A stretch of DNA of 64,000 nucleotides from a virus. Of this stretch, positions 17,660-40,157 are shown piece by piece (position 1 is the stretch's first letter; every line of letters begins with the position of its first letter). The notes under the pieces were generated by a model, which was given only the letters and a program-made list of their open reading frames with translations, ran no database searches and was not told where the DNA came from. Both the position numbers and the translations under genes were made by a program. The stretch lies in the IMG/VR virus record IMGVR_UViG_3300033153_006243, positions 1 to 64,000 of that record. The stretch is one strand, 5' to 3'.

Positions 17660-17757
17660 TACGGCGGGGTCCGCCGGAATTCAAGCCTGTGGAGAAGGGG
17701 AGGCAATGCCCCTCTGTGAAGCAGGAACCTTAGCGCAAGGGGGAAGGGAGGTTAGTA
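17660..17757 (+). ncRNA. Stand-alone TnpB omegaRNA-like scaffold plus putative guide (copy A)
   Basis: Homologous to the tnpB 3' end (19047-19113) and to 39891-39987, with compensatory pairs. Confidence 0.75.
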
Positions 17758-17765
17758 AGAAATTG

Positions 17766-17909
17766 GTCTCTTTCCCACGCGCGCGAGGAGACCAGGCTTA
17801 CGCTCGGCAGGAAGTTCTATCCTTTTCCCCACGCGCGCGAGGAGACCAGGAGAAGCTTCCGGCCCCGCCTTAGACTGGGCCCTATTTCCCATGCGCGCGA
17901 GGAGACTAG
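17766..17909 (+). repeat. Three spaced CRISPR-like direct repeats TTTCCC(C)ACGCGCGCGAGGAGACCAG
   Basis: Copies at about 17771, 17824 and 17885, separated by unique 25-34 nt segments; a fourth copy at 40001. Confidence 0.7.
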
Positions 17910-17928
17910 AGGGTTCTAGGAATGAAAA

Positions 17929-19128
17929 ATGAGAATCTCTAAATCCTATAAGACGGAACTTAGGCCGACTGAAGCCCAGGCTAAACGTTTCTCGCAGTGG
18001 GCGGAGGCGGTCAATCTCGTCTATAATCTTGCGCTCCGGGCAAGGAAGGATGCGTGGGAGAAGGAGAAGAAGACTCTCGGATGGTACGAGCAAAGCAAAC
18101 AACTTACCCAGTTTAAGAGGATCGGGAAGTTTGCCACGCTTAGAGATGTTCCGTCAAGCACCCTTGAATTTCCTCTTCGTAAGGTGGATTTAGCCTACCG
18201 AAACTTCTTTCGTCGAATCAAAAGAGGGGAGAAGCCGGGCTTTCCGAAGATGAAGCCGGAAAAGGGATATAGGAACTCATTTAAGCTGAGAAGCACTATT
18301 CACGTTGACGAGGATGCAATCAAGCTTCCGAAGGTAGGATGGGTTCGGTTAAAGGAGAAGGGATACCTGCCGACCGAAGGGATTAAGATTCTTTCAGCTA
18401 CGGTATCCGAAAAGGTAGGGAGGTGGTTCGTAAGCCTCAACTTCGAGCAGGAGATTGAAATTGAAAAGGCGGAAGGGCCGCCGATTGGAATCGACTTAGG
18501 TATAACCTCCCTTGCGGTGGTGTCGGACGGTAGGAGATTCGAGAACCCGAAGGCGCTGAAGAGAAGCCAAAAAAGACTGGTACGATTCCAAAAGGAATGG
18601 AGCAGGCGGAAACCGGGGAGCAAGAATAGGGAGAAGACAAGGCAGAAGATAGAAAAGCTCCATTATAGGATTGCCAATCTCCGTAAGGACGTTTTGCATA
18701 AGGCGACGAGCGAGATAACGGGAAAGAGGCTGTCGCCGGAGGAAAGGCCAAGAACGATAGGGATGGAGACGTTAAACGTCAAGGGGATGGTAAAGAATAG
18801 GCATCTAGCTAGGGCGATCTCCGATGTAGGTATGGCCGAGTTTAGGCGGCAGATGGAGTATAAGGCGGAATGGCGCGGTGAGGAGATTATCCTTGCCGAT
18901 AGATTCTTCCCGTCGTCGAAGAAATGCTCCGCCTGCGGATGGGTAAATAGGGAACTGAAGCTAGGCGATAGGAAATGGACTTGTGTTGAATGCGGCGTAG
19001 AGCACGATAGGGACTTGAACGCCGCGATGAATCTAAGGGATATAGCTACCGCTGGGTCGGCGGAATGTAACGCCTCTGGAGGCGAGGAAGTATCTTCGTC
19101 CATGAAGGAGGAATTTCAATATGTTTGA
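17929..19128 (+). CDS. tnpB: TnpB RNA-guided endonuclease (IS200/IS605/IS607 OrfB family); no tnpA in window
   Basis: HTH N-terminus YKTELRPT, RuvC-I GIDLG, RuvC-II METLN, Zn finger CSAC/CVEC, RuvC-III DRDLNAA; catalytic D/E/D intact. Confidence 0.95.
   Translation: MRISKSYKTELRPTEAQAKRFSQWAEAVNLVYNLALRARKDAWEKEKKTLGWYEQSKQLTQFKRIGKFATLRDVPSSTLEFPLRKVDLAYRNFFRRIKRGEKPGFPKMKPEKGYRNSFKLRSTIHVDEDAIKLPKVGWVRLKEKGYLPTEGIKILSATVSEKVGRWFVSLNFEQEIEIEKAEGPPIGIDLGITSLAVVSDGRRFENPKALKRSQKRLVRFQKEWSRRKPGSKNREKTRQKIEKLHYRIANLRKDVLHKATSEITGKRLSPEERPRTIGMETLNVKGMVKNRHLARAISDVGMAEFRRQMEYKAEWRGEEIILADRFFPSSKKCSACGWVNRELKLGDRKWTCVECGVEHDRDLNAAMNLRDIATAGSAECNASGGEEVSSSMKEEFQYV
19047..19119 (+). ncRNA. Cognate omegaRNA / right end overlapping the tnpB 3' end (copy C)
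   Basis: ACCGCTGGGTCGGCGG hairpin, GCCTCTGGAG...GAAGGAGGAA, followed by TTTCAA. Confidence 0.7.
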
Positions 19129-19351
19129 AAAGACCAGGAACTGGAAGAAAGCCGTCCTAAACTTGGTGAAGCTTGTTATTCTCTGGTTACTAGGCCGTAC
19201 CCGGAAGCAGAGGAAGAGACAGGTAGAGAAGGCGCTAATGGCGGCGAAGAAGAGGGCAAAATCTTATGAGAAGGCGATTGTTATGGGCGATGCTCGTCGT
19301 ATGTCTAATGATCTTGATAATCTTCTTAGGCGGCTGCGAAGAGGCCGATAG
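19121..19351 (+). CDS. Putative i-spanin (Rz-like)
   Basis: N-terminal TM helix then coiled coil; overlaps a lipoprotein ORF. Confidence 0.45.
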   Translation: MFEKTRNWKKAVLNLVKLVILWLLGRTRKQRKRQVEKALMAAKKRAKSYEKAIVMGDARRMSNDLDNLLRRLRRGR

Positions 19352-19550
19352 GTACGATGGGACGGGGCCGTATACCCTGAAGGCGGGGACGATGGTGAGG
19401 GAGCCGGAGGACGGGGGATACGGCGATGTATGGACGCTTGAGGGGGACGCGGTATTGGTTCCGAAGCATATCTACCTAGAGATTTTGGAGGCCCTCGATA
19501 TCGAGGCTTACAAAGAGGGCGGGACGGGAATCGTTATTGATATTCAGTGA
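19266..19550 (+). CDS. Lipoprotein, putative o-spanin (Rz1-like)
   Basis: Signal peptide with lipobox LGGC; overlaps the previous gene in another frame. Confidence 0.5.
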   Translation: MRRRLLWAMLVVCLMILIIFLGGCEEADRYDGTGPYTLKAGTMVREPEDGGYGDVWTLEGDAVLVPKHIYLEILEALDIEAYKEGGTGIVIDIQ

Positions 19551-20664
19551 GGAGAAGGTTAATGGAGCCGAAGATTCCTGAACCTGACGTACATAGCAAC
19601 GGGGAAAAGGCCAAACTTGATAGGCTTGATCAGTGGCATACATGCGCGTGGTGTCGCGGGTTAGGGTGGCAAGGAACTGACCCAATTCGGTGTTTACCGA
19701 ATGATCGCGAAGAATGTGAGGTCTGCGGTGGTAGGGGAAAAGTTAGTCAGATGCGTATTGAGGAATTTGTTAAGGAACATCCATTAACTGTTATTTTTTT
19801 CAAAGATTATCTATCGCCTGATGTGCAATATGGGGAACCCGTAGATGCATATTTACGTAGCACACTAAGCAAACGGGATGCGGAAGAAGGAACATGAGTA
19901 GGATAAAGATGTCGGTAAGGGAACGGAAAGCGCGGGACCTCTACTTTGACGAGTTTGTGCGTCGGCTAGGGGAGAGGATGGACGTAGGCGAGGGGGACGG
20001 GTACTACGAGAATAGGCTCTCAGACTTTACGACGTGGTTTGGGGAACTGAGGGCGCAGGCGGCGGAGGATGTGCTGGAGAGCCATCCAGAGACATTCAGG
20101 AATCCCGACGAGGATATGTGCGAACCCGATTGGGAATAGGGAGGAGATAAAGATGTTAGCATTAAACTTTGGGATCGCTGTTGGCCTATATGTAATATGG
20201 TTTGTAGGTGTTTTGCTTGCTGTCGGGATATTTGGTGGGTTTTGGGATATTGCGGAGTCAGGGGTAATTAAAGGCATTATTGCGCTATTACTAATTGAGG
20301 GCGGTGCTATGGGGCTGCACCAATATAGCCTAATGGAATCATCATGGCCTTTTGGGGTTTGGCCTAGAATAGCGGCGGGGGCCGCCGGCTTCGTTTTGGT
20401 ACATGGAATTTTAGGGCTGCTTTTTTGGCTAGTTGATAGGGAATAGAGTAACGGAAGATGTAGGGAGACGAGGATGATAGGTAGTAGGGAACAGACATAT
20501 TTCCATTTGAAAACGATTAGGGACTCTTTAGAGGCATTCCTCGCCGATTTTGCGTCTGAGGAGAACGAATCCCTTCAGGGCCGGGAAAGGGTCCGGCTTG
20601 AGATCATTCATAATCTACTGAATAGGACAATACAGGAGCTTAGGGAGAAGAAGGAGGAGACAAA

Positions 20665-20907
20665 ATAACAGCCGCATATTCTAAAGAGAAGTATCCTCCT
20701 GTACTGTCTGGGGCTAAAGCCTTTCTTCTTTACGATACTTGCGGGCTGCCAATAGAGTATATCCAGGAAGAGGCGGCAAGGCGGGGTATAAACGTAGACA
20801 TAGTGGAATTTGAACGGCTGCTTGAATTGCAACGGGAGCGTTCTCGTAAAGCAAGCAAATTTGGCGGGGATATCTTTAAGGGGGAGAAGAAGGAGGAGAA
20901 TAAATGA
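20665..20907 (+). CDS. Alanyl-tRNA synthetase helical-domain fragment (ATA start or pseudogene; absent from the ORF track)
   Basis: Translates as ...LSGAKAFLLYDTCGLPIEYIQEEAARRGINVDIVEFERLLELQRERSR; SD AAGGAGG upstream. Confidence 0.7.
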   Translation: MTAAYSKEKYPPVLSGAKAFLLYDTCGLPIEYIQEEAARRGINVDIVEFERLLELQRERSRKASKFGGDIFKGEKKEENK

Positions 20908-21228
20908 AACCGGAGCCACGGGTTGTAAAGAAAATCAAAGTTGATGGTATAGACCTAACAAAGGAACCTTCAGCGGGGTTTAGAGTTCTGTGCCCTGGAT
21001 GCGGGGAGCCCCAAAGCCAACTATGGGAACGCCATACCCCCGGATGCCCGGAGGCTCCGGCGGACTTCGTAGTTAAGTGGGAACAGGCGACCGGGAAGCA
21101 ATGGCCGGAGAGAATGGCTGAGAAGGGAGGGGACCGACGTGAATAATGTGAAACTATTGGCTGTAAAAACCCCCGTAATATATCTAAAAAGGCGGTTTTG
21201 GCTTCTATCATATAGGTAGGAATTCTGC

Positions 21229-21960
21229 AATCTGTAAATGGCCGAGAAACGACTTATAGTTCGCTTTTAGGCCGGAAAGGATTAGTATTCTGGCTTTGCA
21301 CGAAGAGGCATAAATAATTTGGTTTTGGCTGAGAAGACGAGAATGATTTGTTTCTAGCTGGAAAGGTAGGAATAATCTGCTTTTAGGCCGGGAACTAGAA
21401 CCGTTTTGTTTTCAGGGAGGGAAGCAAGAATAATTTGTATTTAGTTAGAAAAACGAAACCGATCTGCTTTTGGGCTAAAAAATAGGAAGGATATACTTTT
21501 TGGTTAGAAACGAGGAATATATTGCTTTCGGGCTCAAAAGCAAAAGTGATCTGCTTTTAGGCCGGGGACTAAGAGTATTCTCCTTTTGGACGGAGGATTA
21601 GAACTGATCTGCTTTTTGTCAAGAAGCCAGAAGCGATCTGTTTTTGAGGCAAAAGGGAAAAGTAAAATGTTTTTGAGGCAAAAGGGAAAAGTAAAATGTT
21701 TTTGAGGCAAAAGGGAAAAGTAAAATGTTTTTGGCCAGAAAAGTAGAATTGATCTGTTTTTAGGTAAAGTGGCAAAAATGATTTATTTTGGGCCGAAAAG
21801 AGGAAACTATTCGTTTTTGGGTAAGAAGGTAAAAATGATCCACTTTTGGGTAGGAAACGGAAAATGATCCGCCTTTTGAGGGAAAGACGAAACCGATCCA
21901 CTTTTGGGCTGGAGAACAAAAGCGATCTATTTTTAAGGAAGAAACCAAAAACGATATATT
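21229..21960. repeat. About 25 degenerate tandem units with a 29-bp period (approximately GATCTGYTTTTRGGYNRRAAARNNRRAAN)
   Basis: Manual phasing; near-exact tandem TGTTTTTGAGGCAAAAGGGAAAAGTAAAA at 21639-21725; non-coding. Confidence 0.85.
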
Positions 21961-22047
21961 CCTTTGTGAGCTATTTCGATAAACCGCTCTAACGGTAGCG
22001 TAAGGGGGGTTTTTGGGATGAAAAGTATCAAGTTTTAGGAGAGGGGC

Positions 22048-24507
22048 ATGATAACGCTCCATCTCGGCGACTGCCTGGAAGTATTAGGGACGCTGGAGGA
22101 GAATAGCGTGGATACGGTGATTACCGATCCCCCGTATGAACTTGGCTTCATGGGGAAGAAATGGGATGGTACGGGAGTCTCCTTCCAGAAAGAGACGTGG
22201 AAGGCGGTGCTTAGGGTAGCGAAACCGGGGGCGACGATGCTGTGCTTTGGGGGAACGAGGACATGGCATCGGCTGGCTTGTGCGGCAGAGGACGCGGGAT
22301 GGCAAATAAGGGATACATGCATGTTTTTGTACGGATCTGGATTTCCAAAATCTTTATCAATATCGAAGCAACTGGATAAGCAGGAGCGGGATAAGTGGTT
22401 GAAAGTAGAGAAGGCAACTTACGATATCAACAAACATACTGTAATGGTAGCATGGAAAGAGAACTCAAGAACTGCGAAGTCTGCGGGGCTACTATTCGCA
22501 AAGAATGGAATCGGAACTGGAATGAATACGCCAAAAAGCGATTTTGTTCTAGGAAATGCAATGCTATCAATCAATCCCAAAAAATCAAGTGTAAATGCGA
22601 TCATTGCGGAACTATCTTTGAACGTTCCCCATCACATCTACGACAAAAGAAATGGGTATTCTGTTCCAGAGAATGTAGACATAAGCACCTATCGGTCGAA
22701 GCCATCTGCGGAATTTGTGGTAAGCAAGCAACCGTGCCTAGAAGTAGGGCCAGCGGAAAGTATTATTGTTCCCGTCAATGTATGGGGTTGGCAAAGCGGA
22801 AATACAATGGGCAATCTCAAGGCCGTCGAAGCCCTGAGGATTTGGCTTGGAAGCAAAAAGTCCTCAAGGACGCAAACTATAAATGTGCTATGTGCGGCAT
22901 TGACCGACGACTTGAAGCACATCATATTAAGTCAATCAAAGACTTTCCAAACCTTCGACACGATCCAACAAATGGAATGTGTGTCTGCCATGAATGTCAT
23001 TATTACGGAATCCACGGCGGAGCACCTAATTTCATTCATGGTCGATATGCTAAGAAGTAAAGCTATTGATAAGGCGAAAGGAGCGAAAAGGAAAGTGGTA
23101 GGTAAATCCCGCTCAATAGATTGTATCGAGCGTGGGTATACCAAAGAGTACAGTACGAAGGCGGAAAATAGTGGTTACGGAACATCTCGCCAATTTGGGC
23201 TTGGCCTCCCCATCACCGCCCCCGCGACCGATCTCGCCAAGCAATGGAATGGATGGGGTAGTTCCCTTAAGCCCGCATGGGAACCTATACTTGTATGCAT
23301 GAAACCATTAGACGGGACATACGCGGAAAATGCAGAAAAGCATGGTGTGGCTGGATTGAATATCGATGGGGGAAGGATAGAGATACAAGGTAATCCATAT
23401 AAGCAGGGGTTTAGAAAGGGAATCTATGTTGATAATTACGAAGCGACCTCTTGGAGGCTACGGAAGAATGGAATCCCGCATACAAAGCTCCCGCACACTC
23501 AAGGCCGCTGGCCCGCGAATCTGATACTCTCCCATTCCCTCGAATGCCGCCAAGTCGGGGAACAATGGGAATGTGCTGAGGGCTGCCCGGTGAGGATGCT
23601 AGACGAGCAGAGCGGGGAGCTGGATGGAAGAGGGAATAAGGGGCCTAGTATATCAAGGGCGGATGTATATGGATTCACTTTTGTTCATAGCTGCGGAGGG
23701 GAATTCTCTCGTGGCGATTCGGGCGGAGCATCTCGATTCTTCTACTGTGCGAAGGCGTCGAGGAAGGAACGGAATATGGGGCTTAACAGCATACATACGA
23801 TAAAGTATAATGTAGGCAAGTCAACTTTAGGGGGCTTGTTATGCAAAGACGTAAGTATGGTACTGGTAGCATTTCTCGAAAAGGCTACATCAGGATCAAT
23901 GGTCAGATGGCTCATCGACGAGTCTGGCGAAAGCATCATGGGCCTGTGCCCGTCGGATTCTTTATCCACCACATTGATGGGGATAAGCAAAATAACCGAA
24001 TCGAAAATCTCAGACTTATTGATGCCCTTACTCACAAAAGACTGCATACCGGATGTGAATTGCGGAACGGGGAATGGTGGAAGCCCTGCCGCAAGTGTGG
24101 AGAGTTCAAGCAAGTCTCAACGGACTATTATAAGCGAAAGCCAAGCGGGATTAGTCCGTGGTGTAAAAGCTGTTGCGTTGCCAATGCTGTCTATAATAAG
24201 CGACGCCGCAAACTGGAAGCCGCTAACCAATACACATAGTACAGTAAAGCCTCTTGCCCTCCTAGATTACCTCTGTAAGCTGACTAAGACGCCTACGGGG
24301 GGAATCGTTCTCGACCCGTTTATGGGTAGCGGGACTACGGGGATAGCGGCGATCAGGATGGGTAGGAAATTCATAGGTATCGAGAAGGATAAGGAGTCGT
24401 TTGAGATAGCGAAGATGAGGATAGAGGCGGCGAAACCGGAGGCGGAGGCGATTAGGTTGGGGATAAAGCCGGAGAATCACCTGCCGGGGATTAAGCCGCT
24501 GTTCTGA
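22048..24507 (+). CDS. DNA N6A/N4C methyltransferase (beta class) with two large insertions
   Basis: TDPPY, YGSGFPKS, LKPAWEPI, GRWPAN, SRFFYCAKAS, H.TVKP, DPFMGSGTT. Confidence 0.9.
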   Translation: MITLHLGDCLEVLGTLEENSVDTVITDPPYELGFMGKKWDGTGVSFQKETWKAVLRVAKPGATMLCFGGTRTWHRLACAAEDAGWQIRDTCMFLYGSGFPKSLSISKQLDKQERDKWLKVEKATYDINKHTVMVAWKENSRTAKSAGLLFAKNGIGTGMNTPKSDFVLGNAMLSINPKKSSVNAIIAELSLNVPHHIYDKRNGYSVPENVDISTYRSKPSAEFVVSKQPCLEVGPAESIIVPVNVWGWQSGNTMGNLKAVEALRIWLGSKKSSRTQTINVLCAALTDDLKHIILSQSKTFQTFDTIQQMECVSAMNVIITESTAEHLISFMVDMLRSKAIDKAKGAKRKVVGKSRSIDCIERGYTKEYSTKAENSGYGTSRQFGLGLPITAPATDLAKQWNGWGSSLKPAWEPILVCMKPLDGTYAENAEKHGVAGLNIDGGRIEIQGNPYKQGFRKGIYVDNYEATSWRLRKNGIPHTKLPHTQGRWPANLILSHSLECRQVGEQWECAEGCPVRMLDEQSGELDGRGNKGPSISRADVYGFTFVHSCGGEFSRGDSGGASRFFYCAKASRKERNMGLNSIHTIKYNVGKSTLGGLLCKDVSMVLVAFLEKATSGSMVRWLIDESGESIMGLCPSDSLSTTLMGISKITESKISDLLMPLLTKDCIPDVNCGTGNGGSPAASVESSSKSQRTIISESQAGLVRGVKAVALPMLSIISDAANWKPLTNTHSTVKPLALLDYLCKLTKTPTGGIVLDPFMGSGTTGIAAIRMGRKFIGIEKDKESFEIAKMRIEAAKPEAEAIRLGIKPENHLPGIKPLF
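22395..23060 (+). CDS. HNH endonuclease nested in the -1 frame of the methyltransferase (insert 1)
   Basis: SD AGGAG before GTG; CxxC and FCSRxC repeats; CAMC...LEAHHIKS...NGMCVCHECH. Confidence 0.85.
   Translation: MVESREGNLRYQQTYCNGSMERELKNCEVCGATIRKEWNRNWNEYAKKRFCSRKCNAINQSQKIKCKCDHCGTIFERSPSHLRQKKWVFCSRECRHKHLSVEAICGICGKQATVPRSRASGKYYCSRQCMGLAKRKYNGQSQGRRSPEDLAWKQKVLKDANYKCAMCGIDRRLEAHHIKSIKDFPNLRHDPTNGMCVCHECHYYGIHGGAPNFIHGRYAKK
23783..23811 (+). promoter_or_regulatory. sigma70 promoter inside the methyltransferase CDS, upstream of nested HNH 2
   Basis: TTAACA-17 bp-TATAAT, 30 nt before ATG 23841; SD AGGGGG. Confidence 0.7.
23841..24239 (+). CDS. HNH endonuclease nested in the -1 frame of the methyltransferase (insert 2)
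   Basis: GYIRI, AHRRVW, IHHIDGDKQNNRIENL, C-terminal CRKC...CKSC. Confidence 0.88.
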   Translation: MQRRKYGTGSISRKGYIRINGQMAHRRVWRKHHGPVPVGFFIHHIDGDKQNNRIENLRLIDALTHKRLHTGCELRNGEWWKPCRKCGEFKQVSTDYYKRKPSGISPWCKSCCVANAVYNKRRRKLEAANQYT

Positions 24508-24832
24508 GGAAAACGAAGGATGATTAAGGAATTCGAGGACGGAAGGGTGCAGATAGAGTTAGATACCGATAGGGATCCCTTCGGGTGGATATCGTGGAAG
24601 GGCACTGATGTATGTATGACTATCAAGTGTACTAAGTGCGGGTTCACGGGGCATGTGGATGCAGAGGGGGCCTATTTCGTCCGTTGCGCCGTATGTGGCC
24701 AGATGTATAGGGTACTTGGCTTCGTTATCCTTCAGGCCGTAGATACCCTACCGGAATGGATGGGGGAGGATGGGGAACGGATAGCGGATTCTGGTATCGA
24801 AAAGGAGGAAATAGAGGAAGCAAAGCAAGACT

Positions 24833-25189
24833 ATGAGAGGTGAGGTGATGAGGAGAAGGTTTGCACTATATGTTATTATGGTACTCTTACTGGCATTGGG
24901 GGCGTGTGCAGAGAAGCGGGAAGAGAAAATTGACGGAATATATAAGGGTTCAGTCTTTGTCGCCGGATATATGATGAACTACTTGAGTTCACAACCCGCA
25001 CGATGCCATGTACTGGTTTTAATCGACGGTATAGAGAAAGTCTATACGTTTTCCTACCAGTCGGCAGAGGTAGCATGGTTGAAGCTTAAGAACTGCCCCA
25101 ATGGGACGCCTGTAACCGTGATCATGGTAGGCGATAAATTTCGCGGACTAGAATGGAGTAGAGGTGATTATTACGACGGTAAACGGTAA
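24833..25189 (+). CDS. Putative lipoprotein
   Basis: Lipobox LGAC after a hydrophobic stretch. Confidence 0.5.
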   Translation: MRGEVMRRRFALYVIMVLLLALGACAEKREEKIDGIYKGSVFVAGYMMNYLSSQPARCHVLVLIDGIEKVYTFSYQSAEVAWLKLKNCPNGTPVTVIMVGDKFRGLEWSRGDYYDGKR

Positions 25190-31444: not shown

Positions 31445-32848
31445 GTGAAAGTTCTCCTAATTGCCTATGACAATGGTTCCTTCATTCACCACTTCCCTTT
31501 GGGTTTGGGGTATATTGCATCGGCCCTGCGGGAGGCGGGGCATGATGTGGAGATATACAACCAGGATAAGAACCATTGGCCCGACCAGCACCTAGCAACC
31601 TATCTCTATCATAATCCAGTTGACGTGGTGGGTCTTGGAATCATCGCGGGCTATTATCAATACCAGAAGATACTGGCGATCTCAAAGGCCGTTATGGAGG
31701 CGAGAAGCGCGGGAGTAGAATTCCTTTACGTCCTTGGTGGGCACGGCCCCTCACCAGAGCCGGAGTTCTTCCTGAAGAAGACGGGCGCGGACGTAGTGGT
31801 ATTAGGCGAGGGCGAGAGAACCTTTGTTGAGCTTCTCGATGCGGAGAAGCAGGGGATAGGGAGGGAAGCCGTAAATGGCATCTATTTTCTGGCGGAGGAT
31901 GGGACGGGGGTAAAAACGGCAGCAAGGCCGCTTATCTCAAATATTGATGGGATTCCGTGGCCCGCGTGGGACCTATTCCCGATGGACTATTATTCCCTCA
32001 TACGGCTATCCCATACGGCGAATGAGGATAGGGTGGCGGCGGTAGTCTCCGCCCGCGGCTGCCCGTTCAAATGTAATTTCTGCTATCGGCTGGATAAGGG
32101 AATCCGGTTGCGGTCGCCTGAACCTATCGTTACGGAGATGCAGGAATTAAGGTCGAAATACGGAATGAACTACTTTGGCTTTCTTGATGAGCTTTTGATG
32201 TTTGGTGAACAAAGGACAATAGCGGTCTCGAATGCGATTGAGGAAGCTTTCTTCGGATCGGTTAAGTGGGCATGTAATGGGCGGCTGAATTACGCTACCC
32301 CGAAGGTACTTAAGGCAATGAAGGATTCGGGATGCGTGGAAATCAATTATGGCGTGGAGTGCTTCGACGACGAGGTTCTAAGGAGAATGAATAAGCAGCT
32401 TACTACGAGGCAGATTGAGGAGGGGACTAAGGCAACGCTTGATTCGGGCATAACTCCGACGCTTAACGTTATGTTCGGGAATCTCGGCGAGACTGAGGAA
32501 ACGCTATGGAAGACCGTCGAGTTCATGTTGAAGTATGATCCGCATGAGACCCTACGGACGATAAGGCCGCTGACCCCCTATCCCGGCTCCCCGCTTTACT
32601 ATCAGGCGATTGAGATGGGACTGCTCGAAGGGCCGGAGGACTTCTATGAGAACAAGCATACTAATTCCGATCTAATGAGCGTGAACTTTACCGACATACC
32701 CGATGATAGATTCTATGAGCTTCTCCTTCAGGCGAACGGAATGCTAATTGAGAAATACTACGAGCGCCAGAGAGAGCGGAACGAAGAGGTGCTTGATTCC
32801 CTATATCGAAAAAAGGATGCTAGCTTTAGGGGGTTCAGGCAGACATGA
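31445..32848 (+). CDS. B12-binding radical SAM enzyme (class B methyltransferase-like)
   Basis: PLGLGYIAS, GGHGPS, GEGE, RGCPFKCNFC, TPYPGS. Confidence 0.92.
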   Translation: MKVLLIAYDNGSFIHHFPLGLGYIASALREAGHDVEIYNQDKNHWPDQHLATYLYHNPVDVVGLGIIAGYYQYQKILAISKAVMEARSAGVEFLYVLGGHGPSPEPEFFLKKTGADVVVLGEGERTFVELLDAEKQGIGREAVNGIYFLAEDGTGVKTAARPLISNIDGIPWPAWDLFPMDYYSLIRLSHTANEDRVAAVVSARGCPFKCNFCYRLDKGIRLRSPEPIVTEMQELRSKYGMNYFGFLDELLMFGEQRTIAVSNAIEEAFFGSVKWACNGRLNYATPKVLKAMKDSGCVEINYGVECFDDEVLRRMNKQLTTRQIEEGTKATLDSGITPTLNVMFGNLGETEETLWKTVEFMLKYDPHETLRTIRPLTPYPGSPLYYQAIEMGLLEGPEDFYENKHTNSDLMSVNFTDIPDDRFYELLLQANGMLIEKYYERQRERNEEVLDSLYRKKDASFRGFRQT

Positions 32849-33292
32849 AAGTTGATGCGGGGTTACCGAGCTAAGGAGGATTCTTATGTGGCATGATTGG
32901 GAATGGTTTAAGGCTGTAATTTGGATGTGGTGTTTAAGGCTTTTGTTGTGGGGATGCATTGTAATCGGCGTTAGTTGTACCTTTGCATTAGTTGCCACGA
33001 TAGTTTACTGTATTAAACATTGGAACGATCCGGTTCCTAATTTGAGTGATCAGTTATTTACAGAGATGCTTAAGGACTACAATGATGGTTGGAGGCCGTC
33101 TACTGCTCAATTTGTACCTGGACTTTTCGGGGTACAAGTGAATCCGTGGTATAAGAAGTGTCTTTCCCCTTCTAAGTTAGTGAAGTGGTCAGAAGAGGTT
33201 CCATTTGATGAGGAACATAAGGAAGAATACCATGAGCGGGCAAACCTCGTTCTTGATACAATTTTAACATTAGCGAAGGACGCGATGCACCC

Positions 33293-34249
33293 ATGAAAGT
33301 CAACGTAGTAGGCAAGACAAACTTCCGCTGGCTTTTCCACGGGTTATCTACGGCCCTTGAGAAGAATATAGATGGGGTGAAGGCGACAAAATTCTATGAG
33401 AAGGGCTTCGATCTCTATCACTTCTTCAGGCCGCAGGATTTAATGCGGGAGAATTTCTCGTGGGACGTTCCTGCTGTAACCTCCTGTTTCGGGGTAGTCC
33501 CCGGTGAGACAGACTACGAGAGCTGTAAGAAGGCTTACGATTATTGCGAGAGGATAATCGTCCAGTCTACCCCGAACCGCCAGCATTTCCTCGACATAGG
33601 GATTGCCCCGGAGAAGATCGTAGTTATCCCTACGGGTTCCGATCCGAACCTATTTGACTTCCAGGAATGGAATATGACTCTTCCGTTTACCGTGGGGTTT
33701 GTAGGTAAGTGGTATTGGCATCTCGGAACCGTCGTGGATATTAAGGGGCTGCATCTACTACGGGATACCTTCTTGGAGCTTGACCGTAGAGGAGTATATG
33801 CCCGGCTGTTTTTCCTCGGCCTCGGTTGGGAGAAGACCGTGGATGAATTCCGCCAGTTGGGTATAGATGCCTTCAGCATGGAGCGGGACGTGGAGATGAA
33901 ATGGCCGGAGGACTACCCCCTTTTCTATAACTGGATGGACTGTGTGATTGTTACGTCAAAGATAGAGGGGGGACCTGCCTGCATCACCGAGGCCCTTTCC
34001 TGCGGACGGCCCGTAGTCGGGACGGATGTGGGGATGGTTCACGACTTAATTACGAATGGCATAAACGGATATATCTGCGACCGGAGTGCAGATGCTTTGG
34101 CGGGGGGAATCATAAAGATTCTACTTAAAAGGGAGTCCCTTGCGGCGGGGGGTTGGAGGGGGGTTAGGAATTCCGTTGAGGGGCTGACTTACGATAATTG
34201 GGTTTGGAGACATAGGGAACTTTATCAGGAGGTGCTGGATGGCTATTAG
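33293..34249 (+). CDS. Glycosyltransferase family 4
   Basis: SKIEGGPACITEALSCGRPVVGTDVG. Confidence 0.88.
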   Translation: MKVNVVGKTNFRWLFHGLSTALEKNIDGVKATKFYEKGFDLYHFFRPQDLMRENFSWDVPAVTSCFGVVPGETDYESCKKAYDYCERIIVQSTPNRQHFLDIGIAPEKIVVIPTGSDPNLFDFQEWNMTLPFTVGFVGKWYWHLGTVVDIKGLHLLRDTFLELDRRGVYARLFFLGLGWEKTVDEFRQLGIDAFSMERDVEMKWPEDYPLFYNWMDCVIVTSKIEGGPACITEALSCGRPVVGTDVGMVHDLITNGINGYICDRSADALAGGIIKILLKRESLAAGGWRGVRNSVEGLTYDNWVWRHRELYQEVLDGY

Positions 34250-34494
34250 GCCGATAGTGAATACGGGCTTGACTGAGCATAAACTAATGAGCGAGATTGA
34301 CAATTCAATTCGCGGGGGGTTTGTTCTCCTTGCGAAGATTCTTGCCGTTTGGGTTTGTAGTAATAATCCTAGTCCGGAGGCTACGGCAAAGACTATAGGG
34401 GAGAGCATTGAGGACTACGCATATCAAGAGCAGGGACCCCCGCCTGATCCTATGAACGTTCTGGCCAAAATGAAAGAAAGAAAGGGGTAGAAAG

Positions 34495-34752
34495 ATGCCT
34501 TGGACTGCTAGCGACGCGCCGAGTACGGTTAAGACCCCGGCAAAGCGTAAGAAGTGGGCGGAGATAGCGAACGCCGTAAGGGAGGAGTGTATTGCCGACG
34601 GCGGCGAAGAGAAGGAATGCGATGCCCAAGCAAAGATTGTAGCAAGCACTACGGTTAAGAAGAAGGCGGAAATGATTCTTCCTACCATGAAGATCGTGGA
34701 GATCGCAAGGATAGCCAGAAAAGGGGCAGTCGAGAATGCCGGAGACGAATAG
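34495..34752 (+). CDS. ChaB-like small protein
   Basis: MPWT..D.P...KRKKWAEIAN. Confidence 0.5.
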   Translation: MPWTASDAPSTVKTPAKRKKWAEIANAVREECIADGGEEKECDAQAKIVASTTVKKKAEMILPTMKIVEIARIARKGAVENAGDE

Positions 34753-35058
34753 AGCGCCTATGCCGTTTATCGCACCGAAGAGACAGAGGGAAAGAATTGA
34801 GCAGGCGAGAACGATGAGGATTAACCTTACCGTCGAGTCGAACGCCCATGAGATTCTTAAACGTATAGAGAACGAGATCGGCGGGCGGGTTGAACGAATC
34901 GAGATGGCGATTAAGGAGCTTACCGAGGCGATAGAGGACTTAGAGGGGCTTGAGGAGACATTCGAGATTGAGATGACCTTGCGGCCTAATGCAAAATGGA
35001 AGGAACCGAAAGAGAAGAAGCCCTCGTGGATTACGTGGGTATGGAGGCTGTTTGGGGT

Positions 35059-35130
35059 TCCAGGGCAGGCTAATCGGTAGGCCAACGGACTTTGAATCCG
35101 TCAGAGGAGGTTCGATTCCTCCCTCTGGAG
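35059..35130 (+). tRNA. tRNA-Gln(TTG)
   Basis: Cloverleaf; ACGGA-CTTTGAA-TCCGT; GGAGG-TTCGATT-CCTCC. Confidence 0.88.
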
Positions 35131-35135
35131 CAAAC

Positions 35136-35203
35136 GCGGGTGAAAGGGTTTTGGCTTGGGATTCCATCCCAGGTATACGCGGGTTCGACTCCCGCCGCCC
35201 GCT
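35136..35203 (+). tRNA. tRNA-Gly(TCC)-like with reduced D-arm
   Basis: GCGGGTG/CGCCCGC acceptor, intact T-arm, only 13 nt between acceptor and anticodon stems. Confidence 0.6.
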
Positions 35204-35217
35204 CTAAGGAGATAGCG

Positions 35218-36618
35218 ATGCTAAAGGCAGAAGAAGAAGTAATCAATCTCGCCGATTACTATAAGCCAAATAAGAGGCAATGGCTCGCCCACCAGAGTTC
35301 GGCCCTAGTCACCGGGGTCGGCGGCGCGAAGGGGGGCGGCAAGACCGTGTTCCTAGTTAGGGAGGGGCTTGAACTGAGTCTCGATGTTCCGGGGAATGTG
35401 GGGTTTATTTGCCGACATGAGGCATCCTCATTTATCAAGAATGTCCTTCCGGTGATGGAGAAGTTTATTCCAAGGAAACTGATTAGGGAGCACAATAGGG
35501 TCCAAAAATATATGATCATTAACACCGATATCCCCTCCCTTCCGAGCAGAATCTATTATGGGGGGTTGAGGCCAACTAGGGGGGTAAGCCCGCTTGATAG
35601 GATTAAGGGATTCGGCGGGGGGTTAGGTTGGTTCGCAATAGACGAAGCGAGCGAGACGGAGGAGCAGTTCTTCTTGATGCTATTGGGTGAGCTGAAGCTG
35701 AACCTTCTAGATAGGCACGGCAAACCTATGATACATAGGGCAATGATCTCGACGAATCCCGAACCCGGATGGGTATATCGGAGATTCATCAAGAATCTTC
35801 CGCCTGACCATAGTTTCATCCCGTTTCTTCCAAAGGATAATCCGTTTCTTCCGAAGGATTACGTTAAACGGCTAAGAGCCAACTATCCTCCTGATTGGGT
35901 ATTGAGGTACCTTGAGGGAATTTGGGCGGTAGAGTCCGATACTAATAGGGTCATTCCGTATCTGCTGCTTCAGAAGACCATAGATTTGCCGGAATCGGAG
36001 AACGGCCCTATACGGCTTGCCGTGGATGTCGCGAGATTCGGCGGGGATAGGTCGGTAATCGCCCGGAGTAGGGGGCCGAAGGTGAAGATACTATGGAGTA
36101 AATCCCATACGGACATGATGGTTGTTGCCGAGAAGGCCGTCCAGGAATACCGTAGGGAGGTTGCGTATCAACAGGCACAGCATAAGAAGAGGATAGAGGC
36201 CGGAAGGGATTCCGAACCTAATAAGGTCGATCTAATTATTGACGCCGTTGGTTTGGGGGCGGGCGTGGTTGATCGGGTGAGGGAGATGGACAATAGTATT
36301 CGGGTAACGGAGTATATCGGCGGAGCTTCCGCAATGGAACCGGATAGGTTCATTAACCTACGGGCGGAAACCTGGTGGAAGATGAGGAAGATGCTTGAGA
36401 ATGGTGAGGTATGCCTTCCCGACGAGGACGAGCTTCACGCCGAACTAACTGCACCGAAATACTCTATCCGTTCCGATCAGAAGATTGCGATAGAGTCTAA
36501 GGAGGATTTGAAGAAGCGGGGATTCCGGTCCCCGGATAAGGCCGATGCTGTAACGATGCTCTTTGGGGCGAAGGTGTTCCCAAAGTTGGATATTCTTATG
36601 TTAGGAGGTAGAAGATGA
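35218..36618 (+). CDS. terL: Terminase large subunit
   Basis: GGAKGGGKT, IDEASE, STNP, DNPFL, VDVARFGGD, SPDKADA. Confidence 0.95.
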   Translation: MLKAEEEVINLADYYKPNKRQWLAHQSSALVTGVGGAKGGGKTVFLVREGLELSLDVPGNVGFICRHEASSFIKNVLPVMEKFIPRKLIREHNRVQKYMIINTDIPSLPSRIYYGGLRPTRGVSPLDRIKGFGGGLGWFAIDEASETEEQFFLMLLGELKLNLLDRHGKPMIHRAMISTNPEPGWVYRRFIKNLPPDHSFIPFLPKDNPFLPKDYVKRLRANYPPDWVLRYLEGIWAVESDTNRVIPYLLLQKTIDLPESENGPIRLAVDVARFGGDRSVIARSRGPKVKILWSKSHTDMMVVAEKAVQEYRREVAYQQAQHKKRIEAGRDSEPNKVDLIIDAVGLGAGVVDRVREMDNSIRVTEYIGGASAMEPDRFINLRAETWWKMRKMLENGEVCLPDEDELHAELTAPKYSIRSDQKIAIESKEDLKKRGFRSPDKADAVTMLFGAKVFPKLDILMLGGRR

Positions 36619-37946
36619 GTTTCATTTCGAGAATCAAGAAGGCGGTGGGGGAGCTTGTCGGGAGAAGGTCTTCCCTTGGGGTTCCCTACATGCAGATCGG
36701 CGGGATGGGAATAGCATCCCCGAATAAGCCAAAGGAGTATCTCCAGTTATATGGAAGCATGGTCTGGGTCTATTCCTCAACCTTTGCGATATCGACGGGG
36801 GCGGCATCAGTTCCGATCAAGCTCTTCCAGATTAGCAAGGACAAGAAGGATCGTACTGAGATTCTAGATCACGATCTACTTACCCTTCTTAATAAGCCTA
36901 ACGCCCATACGACGTGGAGCGAACTAATTGAGGGGACGCTGGTATACCTCGAACTTACGGGAGATGCCTATTGGGAGATAGCAAAGCCTGCGGTAGGTAA
37001 TCCGGGGGGGCTCTACCTTCTGCGGCCCGATAGGGTAAGGGTTAATCCCTCGGAGGACGGTAAGGCGGTTGCTGGGTATACCTATACCGTAGATGAGGGA
37101 AGGAGTAGGAAGAAGATCGCAAACTTCCCGGTGGACGACATTATCCACTTCAAGTATTTTAACCCGCTTGACGACTGGCTTGGACAGGGAAGCGCAAAGG
37201 CGGCGACGGACACGATAATCCTTGAGCAATATGCTACCCGGTATAATCAGGCGTTCTTTAAGAACTTCGGCTCTCCTGCCGGTTTCCTGAAGACCAACCA
37301 GCCTATTGATGAAAATGAGGCGGAAAGGCTCGAACGGAAGTGGGCACAGATGCATTCCGATCCATCAGATTCATTCAAGACCCCGGTACTTCCGGGCGGT
37401 ATCGAGTATGAGGAGATAGGGCAGACCCCGCGGGGTGCGGAGCTTCTCGTTCAGCGGAAGGTCTGCCGCGAGGAGCAGCTTAGTTCCTTTGGCGTTCCTC
37501 CGGTAAAGGTAGGGTTGTTGGAGAATGCGAAGTACGCAAATTATACCCTTCAGGATAGGGCGTTCTTTAGGGATACTATGCGTCCGAGATTGCGGATGAT
37601 ACAGGCGATAATCAACGTCTACCTCGTCCCGCTATTCGGGGATAATCTACATTTCGAGTTCGATCTCTCAGAATATCTTGGCGAGGATAAGATACAGCAG
37701 ATATTAAGGATCGAAAAGAGCATTTCCCTTGGTGCGATGACCCCGAACGAGGCTAGGAGAGAGCTTGACCTCGGCGAGCCATACGAAGGCGGGGATCAGT
37801 TCTATATGAGCACGAAGCTCCAGGCAGTTTCCGAAACTACGGAGAGCACCCTTGAGGGGGCCGCGCAGAAACTCGGCTATACTTCTGTTGCCCATTGGAA
37901 GTCCAGCCTGAAGAAGACCATTGAGGAGGAAGCAAAGCAGGAATGA
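36615..37946 (+). CDS. Portal protein (HK97-like)
   Basis: GDAYW, LRPDRV, IIHFK, FGVPP, TPNEAR. Confidence 0.95.
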   Translation: MSFISRIKKAVGELVGRRSSLGVPYMQIGGMGIASPNKPKEYLQLYGSMVWVYSSTFAISTGAASVPIKLFQISKDKKDRTEILDHDLLTLLNKPNAHTTWSELIEGTLVYLELTGDAYWEIAKPAVGNPGGLYLLRPDRVRVNPSEDGKAVAGYTYTVDEGRSRKKIANFPVDDIIHFKYFNPLDDWLGQGSAKAATDTIILEQYATRYNQAFFKNFGSPAGFLKTNQPIDENEAERLERKWAQMHSDPSDSFKTPVLPGGIEYEEIGQTPRGAELLVQRKVCREEQLSSFGVPPVKVGLLENAKYANYTLQDRAFFRDTMRPRLRMIQAIINVYLVPLFGDNLHFEFDLSEYLGEDKIQQILRIEKSISLGAMTPNEARRELDLGEPYEGGDQFYMSTKLQAVSETTESTLEGAAQKLGYTSVAHWKSSLKKTIEEEAKQE

Positions 37947-38863
37947 AAGTTCCGTCGAAAGCGAAAAAGAAGCTATTCGCCCTGGACGTAATTCGGTTCC
38001 GTCTTAGTAGGGCGCGCATGATCCATCTTAGGACGAAACCCATGTTCCAGGCTTGGGATAAACAGTGGGTAAGCTATACCCGAAAGAGCGGAATTCTTAA
38101 TAAGGCCGAAAGGGAGGCTAAGAGAATTAGGGAGGTCCAGGGTCTAGTTAAGTCCGCAATTCCAATGGAAAAGGGGATGGCTATCGCCCTCGACGATTTC
38201 GGGGCGTGGCTGGATGATAGGGTACTTTTTCCATTCGATACCCCAAAGACTACTACCAAGAGAATCCATGATGGTCTTGTTAAGACGGCGGAGAAGTATG
38301 CCCCATTTCCAAAAAGGGGTTTGGGGCTTGCCGTTAGTTTGAGCCTCCAAGACCCGGCATACGCAGCGATTCTTGAGGGACGAGATAACCTGATAACCGT
38401 AGGGACGGCTAAAACCCGATTTGAGCAGATAAAGACTACGATTAGGGATGAGTTCATTCGGCATGGGAGGAATGCTGAGGAAGTACGGCGCGCCCTGCTT
38501 CCCGTTTTTAGGGATGCCTATAGGAACCAGGGATTATTGATAGCAAGAACCGAAGTTCACCATATTATTGGTAAGGCGAACTTCGAGACCTTTAAGGCGA
38601 ACGGATTCGAGTTCAAGTCTTGGTATTGCGCCGGGAATAAGCCTTGTGATGTTTGTCTAGGTAGATGGGCGGAGGGAACCATCCCTTTTGGAGATGCGTG
38701 GGGCGATGGGGCTATGGACGCGGGGGATTCCCACCCGAATTGTTTTTGCATGATAGTACCGGAAAACCAAGGGGCAACTCCCCTACATCCTGTGGCTTTT
38801 GAGGGAATAGAAGTCCCGGATGCCGCTCTTGAACGCGGATATTGGGAGAGGGTTGCTGTTTAA
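37943..38863 (+). CDS. Head morphogenesis protein (SPP1 gp7 / Mu gpF-like)
   Basis: IARTE, C..C, HPNCFC. Confidence 0.85.
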   Translation: MKVPSKAKKKLFALDVIRFRLSRARMIHLRTKPMFQAWDKQWVSYTRKSGILNKAEREAKRIREVQGLVKSAIPMEKGMAIALDDFGAWLDDRVLFPFDTPKTTTKRIHDGLVKTAEKYAPFPKRGLGLAVSLSLQDPAYAAILEGRDNLITVGTAKTRFEQIKTTIRDEFIRHGRNAEEVRRALLPVFRDAYRNQGLLIARTEVHHIIGKANFETFKANGFEFKSWYCAGNKPCDVCLGRWAEGTIPFGDAWGDGAMDAGDSHPNCFCMIVPENQGATPLHPVAFEGIEVPDAALERGYWERVAV

Positions 38864-38885
38864 TCAATAGAATAGGAGAAAGCGA

Positions 38886-39836
38886 ATGAGGATCGAGGAT
38901 CTCGATTCAGAACGGATTACTAAGCTGACCGACGGGCAGCTCTATTCCATGCGGCTGAGGTTCATACAGATTTGGGATCGCTGGTTTACAAAGGGGACTC
39001 TACGGCTTAATGCCGCAGGGGGCCTTGACAGGGGGGAACTCCTGTCAAAGTATCAGGAGCTTGCCTCTGAGATGGGAAGTAGGAACCTAAAATTCAAGAG
39101 GCACCATAGTATCGACCGGGCGGCGTCGAAGGCTAAGATGTTCTTAGGTATTGATGTTCCCTCTCTTCCGACAAAGATAATTTCTGAGGGGTTCGTCTCT
39201 CTGGGGAAGGGATTCGTCGAGGATCCGAAGGGTGCTAAGATAATCAAAGTCATCGTGAAGGGGGATAAGTCCGCCGCGCTTGAGAAGTACATTGCCAATA
39301 TCCTAGATGGAATGGGCAAGCCGTTGGAGTTCTCCTTTGGAGAGCCGGAGGAGACCCATGCAATGGTCTATGACCTTGCCTTGATCCCACGACCTGAAAT
39401 GGCGATAGTCAAGATTAAGGGGGGAACGGTTCCGGCTTCTTCCCAGAAGGTTAAGAAGGCCGAAGCTAATTTTGGGTTTGAGATTATGAAGGTAGATGAG
39501 GATAAGCATCTTATTGGTGGGGTAATCTACGCTCCTGATGAGGTTGATTCACAGGGGGATTACACCGATGCTGAAGAAATCTATAAGGCTATGGAATACT
39601 TCATGATCAATAGCCAGAAGATCAAGGTAATGCATAAGGGCAGGCAGATTCGGGCGGCAGTAATTGAAACCTATCAGGTTCCTATAGATTTGGATCTCTA
39701 TGGTAGGGAGATTAAGAAGGGAACTTGGTGGATGACCGTAAAAGTTCTTGCCGAACCGGATGTATGGAATGATGTTAAATCAGGGAGATTCGGGGGATTC
39801 TCGATGGGTGGTAGGGCTATGGTAGCTGAAGAATAG
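38886..39836 (+). CDS. XkdF-like prohead serine protease
   Basis: VDSQGD, MH, KGTWW, GFSMGG. Confidence 0.85.
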   Translation: MRIEDLDSERITKLTDGQLYSMRLRFIQIWDRWFTKGTLRLNAAGGLDRGELLSKYQELASEMGSRNLKFKRHHSIDRAASKAKMFLGIDVPSLPTKIISEGFVSLGKGFVEDPKGAKIIKVIVKGDKSAALEKYIANILDGMGKPLEFSFGEPEETHAMVYDLALIPRPEMAIVKIKGGTVPASSQKVKKAEANFGFEIMKVDEDKHLIGGVIYAPDEVDSQGDYTDAEEIYKAMEYFMINSQKIKVMHKGRQIRAAVIETYQVPIDLDLYGREIKKGTWWMTVKVLAEPDVWNDVKSGRFGGFSMGGRAMVAEE

Positions 39837-39846
39837 AATATTTGAT

Positions 39847-39875
39847 TTGACTTTTTACATGATTTCTGTTATAAT
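39847..39875 (+). promoter_or_regulatory. sigma70 promoter upstream of omegaRNA copy B and the capsid genes
   Basis: TTGACT-17 bp-TATAAT. Confidence 0.85.
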
Positions 39876-39890
39876 ATAGGCGCAAGAGAA

Positions 39891-40026
39891 TACCGGCGGG
39901 TCGCCGGGATTTTAAGCCTATGGAGATGGAGAGAAAATCTCCTCTGTGAAGTAGGAACCTTAGCGCAAGGGGGAAGGGAGGTTAGTAGAAAGTTAATCTC
40001 TTTCCCACGCGCGCGAGGAGACCAGG
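39891..40026 (+). ncRNA. Stand-alone omegaRNA-like scaffold, putative guide and one CRISPR-like repeat (copy B)
   Basis: Homologous to 17660-17796, with an identical 30-nt post-scaffold segment. Confidence 0.75.
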
Positions 40027-40090
40027 AAAGGAATAGGCCAGGCTCGTATAGCAGGCCGTTCGCAGCGTTGGGAATCTACTCGTATAGTAG

Positions 40091-40130: not shown

Positions 40131-40157
40131 GTTGCCCTCGAAAGGAGGGAACCTATA

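Follow-up and report, generated by a model that had tools for sequence, protein, structure and literature searches.

A phage TnpB with three candidate guide-RNA genes and a short array of scaffold-derived repeats

The locus described here raises the question of whether 30 identical nucleotides (nt) that follow two copies of a TnpB guide-RNA scaffold are a guide shared by both copies or a part of the scaffold itself. The window, meaning the whole stretch of DNA analysed, is the first 64 kb (64,000 nt) of the 85,443-bp phage record IMGVR_UViG_3300033153_006243 in IMG/VR. It contains a tnpB gene with one scaffold in its 3' end (C), a second scaffold upstream of tnpB (A) and a third about 22 kb away (B). 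An initial annotation, made from the letters alone, had placed these three homologous scaffolds at 17660-17727 (A), 39891-39957 (B) and 19047-19113 (C), and had read the identical 30-mer following A and B as their common guide. We consider it likely that the window encodes one IS607-type TnpB with three complete guide-RNA genes, that the 30-mer is scaffold, and that two further copies of the scaffold's 3' end downstream of A (R2 and R3) could act as alternative repeats. The features on which the argument turns are the following.

17929 to 19128, plus strand: tnpB, 399 amino acids (aa), with the RuvC residues D189, E280 and D362 and the zinc ribbon intact
17660 to 17796, plus strand: scaffold A of the omegaRNA, or right-end RNA (reRNA); 42.2 bits, E 3e-8 with a covariance model made from relatives only
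17662 to 17676, plus strand: first hairpin of A (loop GGGUC)
17686 to 17725, plus strand: RAGATH-18-like core of A
17728 to 17757, plus strand: 'anti-repeat' of A, the 30-mer in question
17758 to 17767, plus strand: loop of A
17768 to 17796, plus strand: repeat R1, the 3' end of scaffold A, ending in AGACCAGG
39891 to 40026, plus strand: omegaRNA scaffold B, 36.2 bits, with anti-repeat at 39958-39987 and repeat at 39998-40026
19047 to 19138, plus strand: omegaRNA scaffold C in the tnpB 3' end, 35.3 bits (model match 19047-19137), with a minimal terminal hairpin (TTTCAA-TATGT-TTGAAA, 6 bp) and then the tail AGACCAGG

The covariance model was built from ten right-end RNAs of related TnpBs on other viral contigs, contained no sequence of the window, and was run with filters off. 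It recovered A, B and C, and nothing else, both in the window and in the complete record (E 3e-8 to 1e-6, the next best match having E 0.9). The covariation of pairings across the copies, also part of the initial annotation, was found again: four pairs change on both sides among A, B and C, three of them in the 5' hairpin and one in the core (G-C, A-U and C-G). IS607-type elements are recognised by a RAGATH-18-type scaffold that overlaps or follows the 3' end of tnpB, and the model matches C at just this place, as well as A and B. With the Rfam RAGATH-18 model (RF03064) the window copies gave no match at E <= 1, and the relative L010 reached 29.3 bits (E 0.039), below the gathering score of 44.9. 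MAFFT alignments of the window copies with relatives misplaced the variable middle and terminal parts; per-sequence folds and a model-based alignment of the relatives were used instead. The 30-mer is indeed identical in A and B, yet the homology runs further than had been stated: 35 identical nt, a 9-nt loop with five differences and another 30 identical nt carry it to 17796 and 40026. Copy C extends beyond 19113 through its 6-bp hairpin and the tail AGACCAGG to 19138.

Copies of one related insertion sequence (IS) at different insertion sites are identical for 47 nt past GAAGCAGGAA and diverge right after ...GGAGAACGG. This 47-nt segment starts CCAAGCGCAG... in the relatives, and the 30-mer of the window starts CCTTAGCGCAAGG.... 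In the relatives it forms an outer stem enclosing a hairpin and then a 7-nt single-stranded tail, and separate folds of A, B, C and most relatives all give an outer stem, an inner hairpin and a single-stranded tail of 7-8 nt. In A and B the 30-mer makes up the 5' strand of this terminal stem-loop and pairs with R (CTCTTTCCCACGCGCGCGAGGAGACCAGG), an element of 29 nt lying downstream in both. The stem-loop is expanded to about 60 nt in A and B, where CCUU/GAGG, GCGC/GCGC, GGGAAGG/CUUUCCC and a stem adjoining the loop make 26 pairs in 61 nt before AGACCAGG; in C it is minimal (17 nt, UUUCAA-UAUGU-UUGAAA) and is followed by the same tail. The outer stem reaches 97% pairing over 41 relatives, with two-sided changes at each of its three pairs.

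The 5' hairpin of A, B and C has the loop GGGUC in every case, and the tail of R and of C holds GACC, which pairs with GGUC in a loop-tail pseudoknot. In the model-based alignment of the 41 relatives this pseudoknot is 92% paired, with three of its four pairs compensated. Most relatives have GUUC/GAAC, six have GUUA/UAAC and others have GUAC/GUAC, GCUA/UAGC or GUGA/UUAC; the window differs from the family consensus by a U-A to G-C exchange. The structure as a whole is 93% paired in the relatives, compared with 68% in shuffled sequences and 36-47% when the partners are slid. Because the GGUC loop needs a GACC tail, the scaffolds end at 17796 (A), 40026 (B) and 19138 (C), and the pseudoknot fits only a scaffold end at ...GACCAGG. 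A, B, C and R2 all end in CCAGG with differing sequence after it, and the relatives end in ACGG and diverge there, a GG end in either case. The reRNA of ISFba1 consists of a 37-nt 5' flank, a 73-nt RAGATH-18 motif and a 64-nt 3'-flanking motif, followed by the guide (PMC11061315), and the ISFba1 structure has likewise been described with a pseudoknot between loop and flank.

The scaffold had seemed to end where the 30-mer starts because the Rfam RAGATH-18 model stops at GAAGCAGGAA, which is exactly where it ends on L010. The end of that motif is not the end of an IS607 guide RNA; it lies inside the guide RNA, and 'guides' taken from there are therefore scaffold. In its place the loop-tail pseudoknot, compensated across 41 elements, offers a simple sequence rule for the true guide start in the IS607 family.

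With the scaffold ending after AGACCAGG, the guides of A, B and C differ. Read from this end, the three RNAs would carry three different and unrelated guides, each comprising the approximately 20 nt that follow the tail.

17797 to 17821, plus strand: spacer S1, the guide of the fused scaffold A, 25 nt; CTTACGCTCGGCAGGAAGTT, begins CTTACGC; unique in the record
40027 to 40046, plus strand: guide of B; AAAGGAATAGGCCAGGCTCG, begins AAAGGAAT; follows the tail; unique in the record
19139 to 19158, plus strand: guide of C; AACTGGAAGAAAGCCGTCCT, begins AACTGGAA; follows the tail, inside a 76-aa open reading frame (ORF) at 19121-19351

This small ORF has a connection to the scaffold in front of it. 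At 19100-19125 the compensated core pair of C, being C-G and not G-C or A-U, makes a GGAGG 7 nt before the ATG of the ORF, so that the guide-RNA core doubles as its ribosome-binding site.

The 3' end of scaffold A is repeated downstream, and with S1 between R1 and R2 the repeats form a mini-array.

17822 to 17850, plus strand: repeat R2, 27/29 identical to R1
17851 to 17881, plus strand: spacer S2 between R2 and R3, 31 nt, begins AGAAGCTTCCGGCCCCGCCT; unique in the record
17882 to 17910, plus strand: repeat R3, degenerate (25/29), with the tail AGACTAGA and then GAGGG (17909-17913) and the tnpB leader

R occurs in four copies in the window and in none of 100 shuffles. It equals the last 29 nt of scaffolds A and B and carries the pseudoknot strand GACC. 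R1, R2 and R3 begin at the same position, the base of the loop, at spacings of 54 and 60 nt, and the array of three repeats with unique spacers of 25 and 31 nt ends 18 nt before the tnpB ATG. Duplexes with the anti-repeat were calculated at -26.5 kcal/mol for R1, -27.0 for R2 and -23.3 for R3; shuffled R1 gave -17.1 +/- 3.2 kcal/mol, and 12 of 2000 shuffles equalled the real R1. The R2 duplex makes use of an extra G in the GGGGG run. R2 retains GACC; the GACU of R3 can still pair if a G-U pair is allowed. In the minimum-energy fold of the 281-nt A transcript the anti-repeat pairs with R3, so the alternatives are close in energy. To judge from its sequence, R has everything that the repeat of a CRISPR RNA (crRNA) would need to complete the scaffold, and R2 and R3 may be used by TnpB. 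The three repeats were also considered as left-end binding sites for TnpA and rejected as such: the left ends of relatives have other repeats (ATAATCTACT), unlike their right-end tails, and the repeats of the window are the right-end tail in direct orientation.

In the arrangement that we propose, each RNA would consist of a 5' hairpin, a RAGATH-18-type core, a terminal stem-loop and the 8-nt tail, whose GACC would close the pseudoknot with the GGUC loop. TnpB would bind the A and B RNAs in trans. On the anti-repeat of A, R1 could be replaced by R2 or R3, and another guide would then be presented. Such a pairing plan would follow the logic of the trans-activating crRNA (tracrRNA) and crRNA in TranC and type V systems, with R1 remaining attached to the scaffold as in a natural single-guide RNA.

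No array and no orphan scaffold was found in 68 viral loci with related TnpBs, which have canonical 3'-end RNAs, apart from a fragment in L064 and a tail copy in L036. In L064 (1926-3532) about 38 codons of tnpB precede a fragment that interrupts the gene and has a second, near-identical scaffold (2202-2362) at its end; the arrangement is that of an IS inserted in nested or partial form and does not represent an orphan guide gene. In L036 (3736-3879) the last 27 nt of the scaffold (GAGATTCTAGCAGGTATCAGAGAACGG) are present a second time (23/27) after a gap of 90 nt, resembling a solo R2 or R3. The core of R had one chance match in IMG/VR. In metagenomes it had at least 120 single chance matches and a match to a tandem repeat (L099), with no scaffold among the matches listed. 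L099 (13840-14050, minus strand) was rejected as an array: its four exact 61-nt units with CCACGCGCGCGAGGAGAC have near-identical 'spacers', and the match in this high-GC contig is a chance occurrence of the R core in an ordinary tandem repeat.

The protein itself is an ordinary TnpB. It matches the Pfam families HTH_OrfB_IS605 (PF12323), OrfB_IS605 (PF01385) and Cas12f1-like_TNB (PF07282) as well as PHROG 506 (E 2e-112), and its full-length matches in the PDB are ISDra2 TnpB (3e-67) and ISFba1 TnpB (8IAZ, 4.6e-59), while LaTranC gives a local match to the RuvC part only (2e-28). The catalytic D/E/D that had been pointed out earlier is present (D189, E280 and D362), as is a CxxC...CxxC zinc ribbon (C333/C336/C352/C355), and all of these residues are invariant across 30 homologues. 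The closest TnpBs, about 55% identical, are found in phage contigs as IS607 elements with a TnpA of MerR helix-turn-helix and resolvase type directly upstream. The window had been noted to lack tnpA; indeed the whole 85-kb record contains no serine-recombinase tnpA or resolvase, and neither a second tnpB nor Cas1 was found in it (Cas2 was not searched). Nor is a left end like that of the IS607 relatives recognisable at the locus. Without a resolvase and a left end of this kind, the locus is a derivative of an IS607 element and not a mobile IS607. As part of the reading that we favour, TnpB is likely to be a domesticated IS607-type nuclease, no longer a transposon, with predicted cleavage activity. 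The base composition of tnpB agrees with that of the surrounding phage DNA.

A and B appear to be selected as RNAs. Of their first 63 columns 16 differ; ten of these make up five compensated pairs, six lie in loops or linkers and none disrupts a pair, which is the basis for this view. The two loci have both strands of the terminal stem (35 and 30 nt) in 100% identical form, but five differences in the 9-nt loop that separates these strands. If substitutions had fallen here at the 25% seen upstream, the chance of leaving all 65 positions unchanged would be about 5e-9. Two gene-conversion tracts sparing the loop alone are an unlikely cause; the identity would fit a sequence that is held matched to partners at other loci, or that is read by the protein.

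B has signals of its own, including the near-consensus promoter 15 nt upstream that the initial annotation had recognised.

39847 to 39875, plus strand: promoter of B, TTGACT, 17-nt spacer, TATAAT and a TG before the -10 (extended -10); 11/12 consensus matches
40089 to 40135, plus strand: intrinsic terminator closing the B transcript, a 16-pair stem and a T run

B thus forms a promoter-to-terminator unit of about 250 nt, standing alone in the head-morphogenesis module. In the stretch 40043-40160, two copies of CTCGTATAG(C/T)AG(G/A)CC follow guide B ahead of the terminator, at 40043 and 40079. Past the terminator a hairpin, CCCTC-GAAAG-GAGGG, covers the ribosome-binding site of a TTG start at 40158, and the B transcript may also be a leader or attenuator of the next operon. 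Scaffold A is probably read as the leader of a transcript that runs into tnpB. An ORF over A (17574-17873) is not counted as a gene, since the homologous stretch of B carries a 1-nt indel and contains no ORF.

Published IS607 TnpBs use AGGAG or GAGGG as target-adjacent motif (PMC11061315). The tnpB leader is immediately preceded by GAGGG (17909-17913), and in relatives RGGG motifs stand in front of the left ends; a motif of the AGGAG/GAGGG type is the presumed one here. The ...GACCAGG in front of each spacer is no such motif, and TnpB would therefore not be expected to cut the array with its own guides. Within the phage's own 85-kb record the guides matched nothing above 12-nt chance matches. 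Exact 20-mers of guides B, S1 and S2 were absent from IMG/VR, as was the anti-repeat 17-mer; GenBank phages gave chance-level matches only (E >= 2), and guide B was absent from 185,579 species genomes. The single 20-mer match of S1, in a Caenibius metagenome-assembled genome, was rejected as a target: neither AGGAG nor GAGGG stands before it, and about one such match is expected by chance. Given an intact nuclease with guides that match nothing in the phage itself, the role would most likely be the cutting of foreign DNA, for example that of rival phages during infection, by analogy with phage-borne TranC.

Several points weigh against the interpretation preferred here. The array is minimal, with a degenerate R3 and spacers of unequal length. 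The anti-repeat is purine-rich, and several unrelated pyrimidine-rich stretches of the window pair with it as well as R does; complementarity alone is therefore weak evidence. The solo right-end tail copy 90 nt downstream in L036 means that partial right-end duplications may arise as by-products of IS607 and remain unused. At A no sigma-70-type promoter is recognisable. A protospacer was found for none of the guides in the phage itself, IMG/VR, GenBank phages or species genomes, and the collections hold no close phage relative in which conservation or turnover of the spacers could be compared. Finally, the covariance model sets the 3' ends of A and B at 17748 and 39978, which arises because it cannot hold the insert of about 60 nt.

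That shorter end can be taken at face value. The scaffolds of A and B would then end in ...CCTTAGCGCAAGG GGGAAGGG, their guides would read AGGTTAGTAAG... and AGGTTAGTAGA..., and behind each guide R would stand as an element in its own right. Besides the alignment by the model, a 4-bp stem that CCTT/AAGG is able to form and the resemblance of GGGAAGGG to tails such as GGGACGG in L021 speak for it. However, this tail has no GACC for the GGUC loop, whereas the tail of R has it and C has the same tail, and the supposed guides, identical at 14 of 20 positions and followed in both cases by an identical 29-mer, look like one duplicated structured unit. We regard the short end as very unlikely. The initial annotation ended the scaffold earlier still, at GAAG.AGGAA, and saw in the 30-mer one guide shared by A and B for a single fixed target. 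The 30-mer does start precisely at the end of the Rfam model, and it is identical in A and B despite the diverged scaffold upstream, but it aligns with conserved scaffold of IS607 relatives, whose insertions diverge 47 nt later. It is also paired with R, the identity runs on through R, and the pseudoknot tail places the scaffold end downstream, after which the sequences differ; the published IS607 reRNA has its 64-nt 3'-flanking motif before the guide (PMC11061315). A shared guide is hardly credible on these grounds. That annotation had itself named, as what would overturn its view, a 30-mer belonging to the element's right end, and with the 30-mer as scaffold this is nearly what was found. 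Its wider picture of a domesticated nuclease with guides supplied in trans stands as far as an intact TnpB without transposase and additional guide-RNA genes away from it are concerned; the fixed-target guide does not.

Other explanations accept the scaffolds and deny them, or the repeats, a role as guides for TnpB. A, B, R2 and R3 might be dead right-end remnants of earlier IS607 insertions, so that only tnpB with C is or was active. The lack of tnpA, of a recognisable left end and of any target found would suit such debris, and relatives (L064 and L036) do have nested or partial right-end copies. Decay does not fit well with five compensated pairs and no disruptive substitution between A and B, or with a stem kept perfect around a diverged loop; both scaffolds are full-length, B follows a consensus promoter at a distance of 15 nt and is closed by a strong terminator, and the common left boundary of R2 and R3 is not given by independent deletions. 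We hold this to be unlikely. A cis-regulatory role is quite unlikely as the primary one: A would be a leader that lets TnpB bind or process its own mRNA, and B an attenuating leader of the operon from 40158. A does lie directly upstream of tnpB and lacks its own promoter, and B, placed after a strong promoter, is followed by a terminator and by a hairpin that covers the ribosome-binding site of the next gene. Yet both are complete guide-RNA scaffolds by a model made from other elements, and regulation of this kind is compatible with guide function and leaves the repeats and the conserved terminal stem unexplained. The remaining proposal, that R mimics a CRISPR repeat of the host and that the array or the solitary B repeat hijacks or blocks host Cas proteins without serving TnpB, appears highly improbable. 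R has 29 nt and a weak internal palindrome (CUCUUU...GAGGAG), and mini-arrays and solitary repeat units are known from phages. However, R belongs to the guide-RNA family of this TnpB, as its conserved 3' end, and has the C tail and the pseudoknot strand, it folds alone at only -3.8 to -4.9 kcal/mol, and no CRISPR array with unique spacers was present among the at least 120 metagenome contigs listed with the R core.

The interpretation of one TnpB with three guide-RNA genes and alternative repeats can be extended, tentatively, to evolution. The locus could represent an independently arisen and very early stage on the way from TnpB to CRISPR in a phage, comprising the ancestral cis RNA, a trans single-guide gene with its own promoter and a nascent array. 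The TnpB of 399 aa would be unexpanded, the repeat would be exactly the stem strand with the pseudoknot strand, and the RNA would be caught in the making of its split; the perfect conservation of the stem at two loci would then reflect selection for pairing in trans. We regard this extension as a possibility, and doubt it more than we credit it. If the array is used, one genome would show a transposon guide RNA becoming tracrRNA and CRISPR repeats, by a route in which only the 3' strand of the last stem and the pseudoknot strand are duplicated and the protein is unchanged. A 399-aa nuclease with several natural guide formats would, in that case, also be a convenient experimental system.

The record that carries the locus encodes a large terminase, portal-like and prohead-protease genes and a tRNA cluster. 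Its large terminase is about 30% identical to those of known phages, to which the record is only distantly related. TnpB peptide patterns retrieved no relative of the phage for synteny, and the gene following locus B had no full-length homologue among 5.8 billion proteins. A tRNA gene (35059-35130, 58 bits) overlaps the called TTG start (35092) of the large-terminase ORF, whose true start is probably further downstream. Upstream of A, at 17433-17559, there is a tandem duplication of about 93 nt (GCGAAGGGGA..TTC ... TAA(A)GAAA(A)CTAAT, twice), the second copy of which holds a hairpin, AGGGGA-TATTCC-TCCCCT. Among the relatives, L015 (2256-3025) has its scaffold about 600 nt after tnpB, with a cargo segment inside the 5' part of the scaffold region that contains a promoter-like TTGACA...TATACT and a small Cys-rich ORF (MKKICRKCGRV...). 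In the more distant L051, L056, L057, L058 and L062 (about 31-35% identity) a second, inverted copy of the final 24 nt of the right end lies approximately 1.6-1.9 kb upstream, near the left end; these ends resemble terminal inverted repeats, unlike those of the close IS607 relatives.

Of the systems already described, the IS607 TnpB with its RAGATH-18 reRNA (ISFba1, 8IAZ, PMC11061315) shares with the window the protein family (full-length match, E 4.6e-59), the order of 5' hairpin, RAGATH-18 core, structured 3'-flanking motif with loop-tail pseudoknot and guide, and the GG end of the element. The window differs in having no tnpA or left end and three RNA genes for one nuclease, two of which lie away from the tnpB 3' end. 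The terminal stem-loop of its RNAs comes in two sizes, expanded (A and B) and minimal (C), and the scaffold 3' end is tandemly repeated. PATEs are protein-less IS200/IS605 derivatives, which depend on a TnpB from another locus to use their omegaRNAs in trans (PMC10055086). They resemble A and B as guide-RNA genes without an adjacent nuclease gene, which in the window would likewise be served in trans. However, PATEs are mobile, have both ends and take their guide from the insertion flank, whereas B runs from promoter to terminator within a phage structural module and A is joined to an array. TldR proteins are TnpB derivatives of phages that have lost nuclease activity and, with guide RNAs encoded next to them, repress host flagellin (bioRxiv 10.1101/2023.11.30.569447; PMC13418256). 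The window has in common with them a phage-domesticated TnpB and a dedicated guide RNA, but several guides and an intact RuvC triad set it apart, and because of this triad cleavage would be expected instead of the repression seen with TldR.

The last comparison is with TranC, the transposon-CRISPR intermediates (Jin et al., Cell 2025). In TranC a transposon guide RNA is split into tracrRNA and crRNA, and such lineages arose repeatedly from IS605 and IS607 TnpBs (PMC13565253); the phage-borne example CauTranC9 has 414 aa and an array of five repeats (bioRxiv 10.64898/2026.03.27.714800). By these two accounts, TranC is like the window in having an effector of TnpB size next to a short array, without cas1 or cas2 (Cas2 was not searched in the record of the window), in being carried, as CauTranC9 is, by a phage, in deriving its repeat from the 3' part of the guide RNA and in keeping an anti-repeat in the remaining scaffold. 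The window has the traits of TranC that can be read from sequence, namely an array with unique spacers beside a TnpB-like effector and a guide-RNA-derived repeat complementary to an anti-repeat. As for the split into tracrRNA and crRNA, only R2 and R3 would be candidates for separate partners, R1 being part of the scaffold. An adaptive CRISPR-Cas system is not indicated, with no Cas1 in the record, where Cas2 was not searched. The window has three repeats of 29 nt, compared with repeats of 32-38 nt and a median of 4.5-5 repeats given for TranC (bioRxiv 10.64898/2026.03.27.714800). The window also differs from TranC in that its first repeat is covalently joined to the scaffold, its nuclease keeps a cis guide RNA of its own, and a second fused scaffold-repeat-guide gene lies 22 kb away under its own promoter. 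The protein, too, is closer to an ordinary TnpB (ISDra2 3e-67 over the full length) than to TranC (LaTranC 2e-28 over the RuvC part). Systems halfway between transposon and CRISPR have thus already been published as TranC, and the window adds a variant, not a new principle.

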